Shown here piece by piece: positions 1,189 through 7,377 of a stretch of DNA of 10,476 nt (the first letter of the stretch is position 1; each line of letters opens with the position of its first letter). Origin of the DNA: Promethearchaeota archaeon (GTDB lineage Archaea > Asgardarchaeota > Lokiarchaeia > Sigyniarchaeales > SOKP01); contig JAEOTS010000002.1 in assembly GCA_016839745.1 (NCBI GenBank), positions 1 to 10,476 of the forward strand, written 5' to 3'. Both the position numbers and the translations under genes were made by a program. The notes beneath the pieces are model-generated. The model saw only the letters and a list, made by a program, of their open reading frames with translations. It had not been told where the DNA came from and searched no databases.

Positions 1189-1911
1189 TCATTTTGGAAT
1201 TCCTTGTTTATCGATAATCCATTTATCCACAATAAATGTTTGAGACTTCTTTTTATTCTCCACATCGTATTCACTGTGAATTGTGCTTTTGGGGATCCAA
1301 AATTCTACATCCGATTCAAGTGTTATTAAAAGAGCTTTAGGGCTTTCTACTTTAATTTTTGCTTTTATCTCAATAGTCTCTTTTGAAACCCCAAATTCTG
1401 TAGTTTCTACTACTTGCAATCCATTTCTAGCGAGTATTTGTTCAGAAAATACACCATATTCGCTTTCTCCACGAACATCTTCATCTTTCAATTTTTTCTC
1501 TGTTGGACCGCTAGTAGCAAATTCTATTTTTTCGGTTAATATGTGTTCTAGCATTAAGGTAAAGAAATTTAAATTAGGGAAATGAAGTTTCTTTACATAA
1601 TCACCAACTTTAATTCGTAGTACTTGATGAGATTCTTTTTCCCATCCTACGTAAATTTCCGTCTTTCGCTCCTTAAAGACATGAAAACCTCTCCAATTCG
1701 AACTTTTTCCATGGAGAACTTCTAATATACAAATGATTTCTTCGATAGTTATTTTAACGGTTTTTCCTTCTCCCTCTGATGTTCTCTCCCATGTCCCATC
1801 TTCCTTACGATTTATGCAACTTAAGAAAACAAAAGGAGTCGATTTAGAAGGACTTGTGAGTATAATGCTTGATTTTTGTCCGTAAAATGTTTTAATATGA
1901 AAATCTGCCAT
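1189..1911 (-). CDS. Hypothetical two-domain protein: N-terminal Whirly/PC4-like fold (putative) plus a small C-terminal beta domain with KAxL...WIPKS motif
   Basis: 240-aa ATG ORF co-oriented with both neighbours, with gaps of about 55 nt. The domain assignment is by visual pattern comparison only. Confidence 0.75.
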   Translation of the reverse strand: MADFHIKTFYGQKSSIILTSPSKSTPFVFLSCINRKEDGTWERTSEGEGKTVKITIEEIICILEVLHGKSSNWRGFHVFKERKTEIYVGWEKESHQVLRIKVGDYVKKLHFPNLNFFTLMLEHILTEKIEFATSGPTEKKLKDEDVRGESEYGVFSEQILARNGLQVVETTEFGVSKETIEIKAKIKVESPKALLITLESDVEFWIPKSTIHSEYDVENKKKSQTFIVDKWIIDKQGIPK

Positions 1912-2875: not shown

Positions 2876-3181
2876 TCACATTAATTCAATTTCTACTAAA
2901 ACTGATTCTGGAATTTGAATCTTCATAATAAGATGCATCGAACGCTCGTTAGCAGTTATTTCAAAAAGGCGTTTGTGAATTCTCATTTCAAACTTCGCCC
3001 AGGTAGAAGTACCTTGACCAGAAGGAGCTTTTAATACGGGTACTCGTAATCTCTTTGTGGGCAATGGGATGGGACCAAGTTTCCTTATTCCCTGATTTTG
3101 ACAGACGCTTTCTATCTGTTCGCATACCGCTTTAAGAGATGGTAATTGGGTGCTGCTTAATCTGATACGTGCTCGTTGCAT
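2876..3181 (-). CDS. rpsJ: 30S ribosomal protein S10 (uS10), archaeal type
   Basis: MQRARIRLSS, GPIPLPTKRL, P-x-G-x-G-x-x-T-W, EMRIHKRL and IPESVLVEIEL match archaeal uS10. 101 aa. Confidence 0.97.
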   Translation of the reverse strand: MQRARIRLSSTQLPSLKAVCEQIESVCQNQGIRKLGPIPLPTKRLRVPVLKAPSGQGTSTWAKFEMRIHKRLFEITANERSMHLIMKIQIPESVLVEIELM

Positions 3182-4513: not shown

Positions 4514-5620
4514 CTACGAAAATCCTAGTAAAAATTTGTTCCCTAAATTCACATGAGTTAAATGCGTTTTTGCTGTTTCGAAGCATTTATTCGCTTGTTT
4601 CCTCGGTGTAATTGGTAAATCATTCATTTGATAATCGGGATGGAACACCAACAAGCTATAAGGTATTTCATTATTAATTTCACTAATAAACTTAGCAATC
4701 TGCTCCACTTCTTCGTGATTCACATAGCCAGGAACTAATAGAGTGCAAGCGGACATTTCAGGCATGCTTTCACCCCGTGACCCAAAATAATTATTAGCTA
4801 AATATTTGAAATTTTCGAGTGTTCTACTATTACTAACGCCACATAGTGCTAGGTTCAACTTTTCATTAAATGACTTTAAATCGAATTTAATATTCCCTCC
4901 AGAATTTACGGCAATCTGCATACATTTATCAACTAAGGTTTTATTACCACTACCATTCCATTCCCAACATACTCTAAATTTTCTCGATTGTTTTTCATTC
5001 TTGATTTTCTCTAATATACGATTTGATAAATTAATAGTAAAAGGTAATTGTACCTCTGGAGTACCCCCAAAATAACAAATACAAGTGATTTTTTTGTTAT
5101 TATATATTTTGTCAGCTAACAATTCGACATCAACCAAATATTTCTTAGAAAAATGCTTATGGGAAGAGTTCTGGCAGAAAACACAATTAAACGAACATCC
5201 ATACAAAAATGCTGCATAGGAGTAGGTGTTATAATCCCCATCACAGAACCATGCATTACAACAGTTAGTTGGTATTGGATCAAGATACCCGTGAATATAA
5301 CCTTGTCTTTTAGAAGGTAGTGGCAACTCTCCGCTCTGATTTTTCACAATATTTCTTAATCCACAATAGCTTACATCATTTTCAGAAAGAGCACATTCGT
5401 TAATGCAAAAATTGCATTTCAATTTAATGGTTCCCTTATTAGCCTTTGGAGGTTTTGAAGGTAGGTCTACTAAGGCTCTAACCTGTTTATGGACATTTAA
5501 AATGTGTGGTTTAACGAGATCCCAATCATTTTTAAGTATGCAATCCCGACATATGTTTAGCACTCCAGAAATGTATTTATCTGTTTTTCCACAAAATTTA
5601 CATATCCCTATAATTTTCAC
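4514..5620 (-). CDS. Radical SAM protein, PflA-like (COG1180; related to the AmmeMemoRadiSam radical SAM family), with a Cys-rich N-terminal region
   Basis: CSFNCVFC (CxxxCxxC), YFGGTP, KFDLK, TLLVPGYV and FHPDYQM motifs. The GTG start overlaps the upstream TGA (GTGA at 5620-5617). Confidence 0.88.
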   Translation of the reverse strand: MKIIGICKFCGKTDKYISGVLNICRDCILKNDWDLVKPHILNVHKQVRALVDLPSKPPKANKGTIKLKCNFCINECALSENDVSYCGLRNIVKNQSGELPLPSKRQGYIHGYLDPIPTNCCNAWFCDGDYNTYSYAAFLYGCSFNCVFCQNSSHKHFSKKYLVDVELLADKIYNNKKITCICYFGGTPEVQLPFTINLSNRILEKIKNEKQSRKFRVCWEWNGSGNKTLVDKCMQIAVNSGGNIKFDLKSFNEKLNLALCGVSNSRTLENFKYLANNYFGSRGESMPEMSACTLLVPGYVNHEEVEQIAKFISEINNEIPYSLLVFHPDYQMNDLPITPRKQANKCFETAKTHLTHVNLGNKFLLGFS

Positions 5621-6273
5621 CGTTTTTTTAATAGTAAAAATGTTTGACCCGATTTTTGATTAGGGTCCTTCTTAACCATAAATCCATCAAAACCATTATC
5701 TTTGAAAGAAGATATAAAAGAATCTAATTCTTCTTCATCTTTTGGGTAAAATTCGATAATAATTCTCCCGTTAGATTTTAAAACTTTTTTCAAATATCTT
5801 GATGTATTATTAATTGTTTTAAAAATGTCTTTAGCCAAATTTTTTCCATGAATTATAAAATTATAAGCCGAAACGGAAATCATATGATCAATCGATGAAC
5901 GTTTTAATGGTAAATAATTGATGTCAGCCAGTATTAGCTCGAGGTCCTTTTCTTCTTTTAAAAATTTTTTTTTGATTTTAGCTTTCGAGAGCATGTCCAT
6001 TAAAATATCTATACCAATAACTCGATGCCCATTTTCTACTAAAATTTCAGAAGAAAATCCTGTTCCGCATCCTAAATCAGCAATTAAGCATTTTTTTTCG
6101 TTTAGATTGTCAACAATTCCAAGTGTATTCAATTCTTCATCGTGTAGATATTGTAGACAAATTAGCGTTGCTTTTTTTTGATTTCTTTCCATCCAAATCG
6201 AATTCTCATATTCTAAAGAATTATCGCCGATGTAAGAATCGGGAAAAATGGGAGTATTGTTGTGATTTGACAT
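5617..6273 (-). CDS. Class I SAM-dependent methyltransferase, Bud23/WBSCR22-like (putative SSU rRNA guanine-N7 methyltransferase)
   Basis: Motif I ADLGCGTGFS, GIDI, ADINYLPL and ISVSA, plus the Bud23-like C-terminal block IEFYPKDEEELDSF...GFDG...DP. The methyltransferase call is firm; the Bud23 subfamily call is by eye. Confidence 0.85.
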   Translation of the reverse strand: MSNHNNTPIFPDSYIGDNSLEYENSIWMERNQKKATLICLQYLHDEELNTLGIVDNLNEKKCLIADLGCGTGFSSEILVENGHRVIGIDILMDMLSKAKIKKKFLKEEKDLELILADINYLPLKRSSIDHMISVSAYNFIIHGKNLAKDIFKTINNTSRYLKKVLKSNGRIIIEFYPKDEEELDSFISSFKDNGFDGFMVKKDPNQKSGQTFLLLKKR

Positions 6274-6361
6274 ATTTGATCCTAAATTTAAACATCTAAA
6301 AAGTATACATATAAATTATCGAAATGAGTTGATATATATTGTTAGTCATCAGAAAAATATC

Positions 6362-6383
6362 TAATTATAAATTTTTATAATTA
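6362..6383. promoter_or_regulatory. Palindromic TATA-like element in the divergent promoter region
   Basis: TAATTATAAA-tt-TTTATAATTA is a perfect 10-bp inverted repeat. TTTATAA (6374-6380) lies about 28-34 nt upstream of the ATG at 6408, the spacing expected for a leaderless archaeal transcript. Confidence 0.4.
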
Positions 6384-6407
6384 TTTTTAAAAAAAAAATG
6401 ATTTAAC

Positions 6408-6788
6408 ATGACAGATAAAAATTCTATTCTTATATGTGATGACGAACCTGATATCGTCAGTCTCGTTCAGAAGTTTTTACAACTTGATCATTTTAACACG
6501 CTTATTTGCAGCAACGGAAAAGAAGCCTTAAAAATTCTTGAAGAAAAATATGAAGAGATCGTCTTAATACTATTAGATATCATGATGCCTGGGATGTCAG
6601 GGTTTGAAGTCCTTAGAACTATAAAATCGAAAGAAACTTATAAAAATATCAAGGTTATTCTTTTTACGGTTAAAAGTTTTAAAGAAGATAAAGAAAAAGG
6701 TAACGAGTTAGGAGCAGATGGATATATTACTAAACCCTTTTCTGGAAACGAACTACGTGATTACGTGAAAAAAATATTAAGCAGTTAG
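6408..6788 (+). CDS. Stand-alone response regulator receiver (CheY-like) protein
   Basis: ILICDDE, LLDIMMPGMSG (phospho-Asp), FT, and GADGYITKPF motifs. No output domain. Confidence 0.93.
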   Translation: MTDKNSILICDDEPDIVSLVQKFLQLDHFNTLICSNGKEALKILEEKYEEIVLILLDIMMPGMSGFEVLRTIKSKETYKNIKVILFTVKSFKEDKEKGNELGADGYITKPFSGNELRDYVKKILSS

Positions 6789-6978: not shown

Positions 6979-7377
6979 ATGGAATTTCCAATGTCAGTAG
7001 CTAAAAAAATCTTGATCGTTGACGACGAAGAAGATATAACGATTTTGACCGAGAAATTTCTGCAACTCGAGAATTACGACACATTAACCTGTAGTAATGG
7101 ATATGATGCATTAAGCATTATCGAAGAAAAACACGAAGACATAGCACTCGTTTTGCTTGATATTATGCTTCCCGGAATGAATGGTTATGAAATTTTGACA
7201 GAAATTAAGTCAAAATACCCTAAAATTCTTGTAGTTCTTTTTACTGTAAAAAATTTTTTTGAAGACATCCAGAGAGGAAAAGAACTCGGTGCTGACGGTT
7301 ATTTAGTCAAAGCTATTTCTGGAAATGAAATTATAACTTATATTAAAGACATTCTTAAAAAGAAAATAAATAACTAG
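6979..7377 (+). CDS. Stand-alone response regulator receiver (CheY-like) protein; the real start may be the ATG at 6991
   Basis: ILIVDDE, LLDIMLPGMNG, FT and GADGYLVKA motifs. Paralog of 6408-6788. Confidence 0.92.
   Translation: MEFPMSVAKKILIVDDEEDITILTEKFLQLENYDTLTCSNGYDALSIIEEKHEDIALVLLDIMLPGMNGYEILTEIKSKYPKILVVLFTVKNFFEDIQRGKELGADGYLVKAISGNEIITYIKDILKKKINN

Follow-up and report, generated by a model that had tools for sequence, protein, structure and literature searches.

The window analysed here, a stretch of 10,476 nucleotides with a G+C content of about 31%, is contig C32 of a metagenome-assembled genome (MAG) of a Lokiarchaeia-type Asgard archaeon (assembly GCA_016839745.1, JAEOTS010000002.1). 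The MAG comprises 3.5 Mb and is 89% complete. Our subject is one minus-strand gene for a class I methyltransferase dependent on S-adenosylmethionine (SAM), which the original prediction, made from the sequence alone, took for an archaeal homologue of Bud23 (WBSCR22 in human; KEGG K19306). Together with Trm112, Bud23 makes N7-methylguanosine (m7G) at position 1575 of 18S ribosomal RNA (rRNA) in yeast and 1639 in human, equivalent to G1338 of E. coli, and the pair is commonly regarded as a eukaryotic 40S assembly factor. Sequence and predicted fold place the window gene in the Bud23 family, and a second, closer relative of Bud23 lies elsewhere in the same genome.

The open reading frame (ORF), whose strand the original prediction left unstated, begins with ATG at 6273 and ends with a stop codon at 5617–5619; the plus strand over 5617–6273 is closed by many stops. 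All four peptide stretches quoted in the original prediction are present in the translation. The gene and the parts of it that matter for its interpretation are as follows.

5617–6273, minus strand: B-type Bud23-family class I SAM methyltransferase gene, 218 amino acids, stop codon included in the range (basis: the ORF, Bud23 as best solved relative, and membership of clade B at 98/98)
6058–6078, minus strand: motif I, D66-L-G-C-G-T-G72, SAM binding (alignment to human chain 7wtw_q, in which G70 corresponds to WBSCR22 G63; invariant in clade B)
6007–6009, minus strand: D89, the acidic residue that closes strand beta2 (aligned with human D82)
5899–5940, minus strand: residues 112–125, strand beta3 and the next loop, predicted Trm112 contact through a beta-zipper (interface of the complex model; model strand E111-115)
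5857–5862, minus strand: N138-F139 after strand beta4, the clade-B substitution for Q-W (column counts; both invariant in 23 clade-B sequences)
5743–5754, minus strand: E174-F-Y-P177 at the end of strand beta5, with E for the Q of the family-wide QFYP (column counts)

Likeness to Bud23 and the predicted Trm112 partner

When the window protein was compared with all PDB chains by phmmer, its best solved relative was yeast Bud23 (E-value 1e-19, 74 bits, residues 44–215); human WBSCR22 reached 3e-16, whereas the nearest unrelated methyltransferase reached 1e-8. The predicted fold gives the same ranking. With an AlphaFold model built on a 23-sequence alignment (predicted local distance difference test, pLDDT, 88.8), the top eight Foldseek matches are all Bud23/WBSCR22 (E 2e-18 to 3e-16; TMt, the TM-score normalised by target length, 0.69–0.90), and the first match of another kind is ChlM at 2e-11. 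Aligned by hhalign to 20 eukaryote-type Bud23 sequences, a profile of the window's clade matched over 191 columns (residues 12–218) with E 1.1e-48 and a score of 322. When 1.84 billion cluster representatives were searched exhaustively, the 150 best matches proved to be nearly all Bud23-like, being either short archaeal proteins or longer ones that carry the eukaryotic KYTGRKRK-type tail. As the original prediction had it, the likeness far exceeds chance or generic SAM motifs. General-purpose domain libraries are less specific: Pfam assigns clan-level domains only (Methyltransf_31/11/25), and the NCBIfam matches (BioC, UbiE, ArsM and others) all fall far under their cut-offs, the best at 32–38 bits against 103–575.

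The resemblance extends to both ends of the catalytic domain. At the N-terminus, where a match had been predicted, it falls below significance in pairwise comparison, the phmmer alignment beginning at residue 44, but is seen at the profile level, with equivalents of Y22 and Q32 conserved in all clades. Towards the C-terminus, Y176, P177 and F195 are conserved as well. The protein stops 3 residues past the last strand, where the eukaryotic Bud23 profile runs some 80 columns further, and a Pfam search found no PF12589 (WBS_methylT); there is no basic C-terminal tail, and the earlier description of a terminal catalytic domain that lacks the eukaryotic basic extension is thus accurate. The counterparts of human G63 and D82 in the alignment are G70 and D89, both of them invariant or nearly so in clade B. 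Since the mutations G63E and D82K yield catalytically deficient WBSCR22 (PMC4472018), retention of both equivalents makes catalytic activity of the window protein likely.

Set beside the solved Bud23/WBSCR22–Trm112 complexes (PDB 4qtt/4qtu, 6g4w), the window protein shares the fold, the N-terminal lid, the C-terminal strands (FYP, GF-G, YL-L), the SAM-binding G and D, 27–30% identity over about 200 residues and a predicted beta-zipper on the same strand. Unlike them, it has no basic C-terminal extension, no lid arginine and no RPE N-terminus, carries a 12-residue insert after the lid helix, and has N-F and E in place of Q-W and Q at the predicted acceptor pocket. It also differs in genomic setting, in that it is not the reciprocal best match in its own genome and has a radical SAM enzyme as its operon partner. 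A more distant comparison is RsmG, the bacterial 16S m7G527 methyltransferase, which shares the Bud23 chemistry on small-subunit rRNA but acts at another site without a Trm112 partner (PMC5372719). It was absent from the matches of both PDB searches (phmmer and Foldseek), and is an analogue, not a relative. On sequence and model together, the window protein is almost certainly a member of the Bud23 family.

Close homologues, at 60–85% identity, come from marine-sediment metagenomes, and their NCBI names, where given, are 'Candidatus Lokiarchaeota' or 'Promethearchaeota' MAGs. The NCBI organism labels of proteins 62–83% identical to the window's span five Asgard 'phyla' (Loki, Odin, Thor, Hod and Hermod). 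Because these labels vary among near-identical proteins, we regard MAG labels as unreliable at the level of class and left them unused for class-level claims.

The original prediction had called for a search of the genome for Trm112, and the MAG does encode one (G000:C127:23786-24406, plus strand, = L001:1069-1692), recognised by both PF03966 and NCBIfam Trm112_arch. Trm112 usually has about 60 amino acids in archaea and 125–135 in eukaryotes, and this form, at 207, is much larger. It carries an insert of about 120 residues between the two zinc-knuckle halves and a conserved C-terminal tail, F-L-K...L-K-P-F. Trm112 is present in 41 of the 41 genomes sampled from the order.

A model of the complex of window protein and Trm112, made on purpose-built alignments, gave an interface score (ipSAE) of 0.93, and the best of three controls gave 0.01; the mark applied to this score is reached by 58 of 80 solved complexes and by 2 of 110 mismatched pairs. 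Contacts agreed between runs to at least 92%, and the partner pLDDT was at least 91. The modelled interface sets beta3 (residues 112–117) against Trm112 residues 166–173, the last Trm112 strand, and a beta3/beta4 zipper has been described for solved Trm112–methyltransferase pairs (PMC5372719). As such complexes have already been solved, the result shows likeness and may reflect memory, and binding is predicted. We consider it quite probable from the model that Trm112 partners the window protein. Other archaeal class I enzymes also engage Trm112 via beta3, among them Haloferax volcanii Trm9, Mtq2, Hvo_0019 and others (PMC6144793) and Archaeoglobus Trm11–Trm112 (6zxw). Unlike Bud23, they are distant fold matches to the window protein, with 6f5z and 6zxw at ranks 17–27 and E about 1e-10.

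A second copy, clades and distribution

The MAG holds a second Bud23-like gene (G000:C20:9838-10467, minus strand), whose product of 210 amino acids is 34% identical to the window protein. It is the better match to yeast Bud23 (2.2e-29, 106 bits, residues 12–208 against 2–200, versus 74 bits for the window protein), and its clade scores 379 against the eukaryotic Bud23 profile, versus 322 for the window's clade. It was also returned first when a eukaryote-type Bud23 representative, P0192, was searched against the MAG (6.1e-22, residues 5–201); the window gene came second (3.2e-17, residues 47–201). The original prediction had treated the window gene as the genome's Bud23 counterpart, and on this point the reciprocal search goes against it.

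We built a tree with IQ-TREE from 88 sequences, using 8 generic methyltransferases as outgroup. Eukaryotes form one clade (100/100). Clade A (74/86), marked by an 'RPE' N-terminus, includes the second copy and a Micrarchaeota protein, and we refer to its members as A-type. Clade B (98/98) includes the window protein. Clade C includes the copies from f3, an Asgard family with small genomes and one copy each, as well as a protein whose 90% cluster has a member labelled 'Aenigmarchaeota' at NCBI. The clan formed by eukaryotes and clades A, B and C stands apart from the 8 outgroups at 89/96. The best matches of the window protein are not generic enzymes and it lies in one clan with Bud23; two of the outcomes that would have refuted the original prediction, generic best matches and no grouping with Bud23, were not seen. 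In approximately unbiased (AU) tests, none of the groupings eukaryotes with A (p 0.56), eukaryotes with B (p 0.61) or B with Lokiarchaeial A (p 0.31) was rejected, and the trees do not single out one archaeal clade as the closest to eukaryotes. Next to the eukaryote-type Bud23 clade lies a divergent branch (99/78; P0238, P0230, P0250, P0228, P0211 and P0253) with long N-terminal extensions and no KYTGRKRK tail; it may represent a second eukaryotic Bud23-like paralogue.

The clades differ at a small number of otherwise fixed positions. The Q-W pair after beta4 and the Q of QFYP are found in 100% of 16 eukaryote-type, 26 clade A and 13 clade C sequences, and A-type proteins retain them along with the RPE N-terminus. 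Clade B has N-F at the Q-W positions in all sequences and E for Q in 89–100%. Further losses mark the window subclade: the lid arginine, present in 100% of eukaryotic sequences, the RPE motif, D202 and, close to the C-terminus, the basic pair K208/R209. In class I methyltransferases, the pocket for the methyl acceptor is lined by the loops that follow beta4 and beta5. As N-F comes after beta4 and E stands at the end of beta5, we infer that the acceptor pocket of B-type proteins has been remodelled.

Full-length Bud23-like members were sought with a clade-A hidden Markov model (HMM) in 251 Asgard genomes. They occur in 53 of 54 genomes of the window's family (f1), 5 of 5 of f2, 3 of 4 of f3 and the single genome of f18. 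In the other 23 Asgard families, the model matched nothing or gave partial matches at a generic level. Of 41 genomes sampled from the window's order, 40 carry one copy or more, and two copies are the usual number. Beyond Asgard archaea, a clade-A gene is present in 6 of 101 Micrarchaeota genomes. A contig scan with the clade-A alignment was swamped by bacterial methyltransferases that share the generic motif I, and added one true member (Micrarchaeota, L042). Neighbours in the ESM Atlas include further clusters in Nanobdellota, Bathyarchaeota and Hadarchaeota, which we treat as leads only.

Three clade-A genes contain a single in-frame stop (G258:C1:1088900-1089511, G249:C16:35715-36305 and G158:C96:3075-3683): TAG and TGA in two Micrarchaeota, and TAA in one Lokiarchaeial genome. 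They may be pseudogenes, sequencing errors or cases of recoding. We also considered whether genomes with a B copy alone indicate that B can replace A, and rejected the idea. In one such genome (G071) the eS25 gene lies at the start of a contig, and in another (G077) the whole locus is missing; the A copy is probably unassembled in both.

That locus links the A-type gene to the ribosome. About 140 bp from the A-type gene of the MAG lies a divergent eS25-like gene (G000:C20:10608-10916, plus strand, = L003:2268-2579; 103 amino acids), every PDB match of which is eS25. Across the order, eS25 is next to the A-type gene, or to an A-B tandem, in about 33 of 38 genomes, and in families f2 and f28 a tandem in which B follows A is seen in 12 of 13 genomes. 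This synteny was not found outside the order: in two genomes (G001 and G013) the genes are about 50 kb apart, in a third (G025) they lie on other contigs, and none was detected in two Micrarchaeota. Families f3 and f18 have a Bud23-like gene without adjacent eS25.

The radical SAM gene and other neighbours

Downstream of the methyltransferase, the window holds a gene for a radical SAM enzyme, whose start overlaps the methyltransferase stop. These features, and the region upstream, are listed here.

5617–5620, minus strand: GTGA overlap of the methyltransferase TGA stop and the radical SAM GTG start, 2 bases in common (direct reading of the sequence and ORF coordinates)
4514–5620, minus strand: radical SAM gene, 368 amino acids, PflA/AmmeMemoRadiSam-like, downstream of the methyltransferase (Pfam and NCBIfam)
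6274–6407, no strand assigned: AT-rich intergenic region between the methyltransferase start and a divergent response-regulator gene, presumably with the promoter (reading of the sequence)

At its N-terminus the radical SAM protein carries a CxxC...CxxC ribbon, and its likeness to PflA and AmmeMemoRadiSam enzymes is distant. In at least 40 f1 genomes from 8 genera its gene immediately follows the B-type gene, at a gap of 3–120 nt in all but one (there about 700 nt), and the two proteins of the pair have diverged to 46% and 61% identity. The radical SAM family has members at 40–50% identity in 181 of 251 Asgard genomes, some of them from families that have no Bud23-like gene, and B-type genes outside f1 (G094, G025, L122 and L123) are not next to it. 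The translational coupling of the methyltransferase and radical SAM genes is thus lineage-specific, a trait of f1. In one RNA library, two 151-nt contigs map to the radical SAM gene and none to the methyltransferase, which gives no evidence on expression of the latter. The joint absence of the B-type and radical SAM genes was rejected as a sign of functional dependence, because the genes are adjacent.

Divergent from this operon are two stand-alone response-regulator receiver genes without an output domain, at 6408–6788 (plus strand, 126 amino acids) and 6979–7377 (plus strand, 132 amino acids). Elsewhere in the window, a 240-amino-acid ORF at 1189–1911 (minus strand) has no Pfam or NCBIfam match. 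A gene for uS10 at 2876–3181 (minus strand) lies between an upstream acyltransferase_3 membrane protein gene and a downstream leucine-carboxyl-methyltransferase-like gene, with no other translation gene adjoining.

Proposed role and alternative readings

The interpretation that we favour, and regard as probable, is that the window gene encodes an active, Trm112- and SAM-dependent methyltransferase of the Bud23/WBSCR22 family, a B-type paralogue and not a direct Bud23 counterpart, whose substrate is an RNA of the translation machinery, with small-subunit rRNA the likeliest. Judging from the sequence, motifs I–III would bind SAM. Strand beta3 would pair with the C-terminal strand of the 207-residue Trm112, as in the complex model, and the enzyme would thereby be stabilised and activated. 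By analogy with Bud23 and with class I topology, the pocket for a flipped-out base may be formed by the lid helix at the N-terminus together with the loops that follow beta4 and beta5. This pocket would be altered in B-type proteins, in which N-F stands for Q-W and E for Q, and in f1 the lid arginine and the C-terminal basic pair are lost as well. The methylated site or atom need not match Bud23's. For the narrower proposition that the substrate is RNA or the ribosome, we lean towards acceptance.

Several observations weigh against this interpretation. Haloferax Trm112 binds many methyltransferases (PMC6144793), and a passing Trm112 model is to be expected for many class I enzymes. The role assigned to the Q-W/Q positions derives from fold topology. 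A 16S search found no 16S rRNA gene in the MAG, and the literature yielded no rRNA modification map for Lokiarchaeia. The operon partner is a radical SAM enzyme without assigned function. In f1, moreover, the B gene has left the eS25-A-B locus, so that the ribosomal context of the window copy is indirect.

An alternative, the one originally proposed, is that the window gene is a functional archaeal Bud23 orthologue, which with Trm112 places m7G on the guanine of 16S rRNA that corresponds to yeast G1575. Its family membership is clear, Trm112 is encoded and the complex model passes, the SAM-binding residues are intact, and a clade of eukaryotes with B survives the AU test. Counter to this, it is the A-type paralogue that scores higher against Bud23 both pairwise and by profile, is the reciprocal best match, keeps the RPE N-terminus and the Q-W/Q residues, and occupies the eS25-linked locus, while clade B has three family-invariant residues replaced and the window subclade lacks R38, D202 and K208/R209. 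We consider orthology of the window gene unlikely. The predicted m7G at the P/E-site guanine would, on sequence grounds, fit the A-type gene better, because that gene is the better and reciprocal best Bud23 match and three invariant residues are replaced in the window's clade. That the window copy modifies the same site as Bud23 is doubtful, if somewhat less so than full orthology. It is premature to label this gene an orthologue, as does the KEGG-derived name '18S rRNA (guanine1575-N7)-methyltransferase' that JGI attaches to some homologues.

A second possibility, compatible with the paralogue interpretation, is that in f1 the B-type enzyme and the downstream radical SAM enzyme act on one substrate, in a two-step modification of RNA or protein. 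Arguing for it are the 4-nt GTGA overlap, an adjacency that has persisted in at least 40 genomes of 8 genera despite sequence divergence, and the extra changes at conserved positions in the window subclade. Against it, the radical SAM family is widespread in Asgard genomes, including families without a Bud23-like gene, and is not adjacent to B-type genes outside f1; adjacency by itself is weak evidence, and the joint absence of adjacent genes is not independent of it. We hold a joint substrate to be distinctly unlikely.

The B-type protein could instead be a duplicate that is decaying or has lost catalysis, such as an assembly factor with a structural role and no methylation activity. Several family-conserved residues are gone in the window subclade, and the ribosome-biogenesis function of Bud23/WBSCR22 is independent of catalysis in yeast and human (PMC4472018). 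We nevertheless judge this improbable. The SAM-binding motifs are invariant throughout clade B, and the gene is intact at 46–85% identity across dozens of genomes. The replacement residues N138 and F139 are themselves invariant, which speaks for a new constraint and not for decay. Least credible, and in our view very improbable, is a generic UbiE/Methyltransf_11-type small-molecule methyltransferase that resembles Bud23 through the shared Rossmann-like fold alone: clan-level Pfam domains, the existence of NCBIfam matches and the name UbiE given to homologues by some sources fit this idea, but those matches stop at 38 bits against cut-offs of 155–575, generic structures trail Bud23 by 11 orders of magnitude in the sequence search and by 7 in the fold search, the homology spans the N-terminal lid and the C-terminal strands, and the tree separates the Bud23-like clan from generic methyltransferases.

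Two specialist papers from the group that solved the Bud23–Trm112 structure found no Bud23 counterpart in archaea, and report that the nucleotide equivalent to the Bud23 target is not known to be modified there (PMC5372719, PMC6144793). An older orthology screen listed BUD23 'orthologs' in all taxa, including bacteria, which we take to be generic methyltransferase matches rather than counterparts. A preprint of October 2026 names Trm112 as a new Asgard–eukaryote candidate and leaves Bud23 unmentioned. Our literature search found no paper linking Bud23 with Asgard archaea.

Bud23-family genes are near-universal in one Asgard order, usually as two paralogues, beside eS25 and with a conserved Trm112. 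Their patchy distribution elsewhere, with none found in 23 Asgard families and few in Micrarchaeota, speaks against a simple vertical history of the 'eukaryotic signature protein' kind. The value of the window gene within this picture is that of a diverged paralogue with an altered pocket. A more speculative extension is that an ancestral ribosome-linked locus, with eS25 beside Bud23-A and Bud23-B following A, is carried by Lokiarchaeia and served by the enlarged Trm112, and that the B-type enzyme, with its remodelled pocket, installs a second modification of the translation apparatus, in f1 jointly with the radical SAM enzyme. We think this rather unlikely; were it true, the Bud23–Trm112 step of small-subunit head maturation would predate eukaryotes. 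Cultured Lokiarchaeia exist, and these genes offer a testable case for archaeal roots of part of eukaryotic small-subunit maturation.

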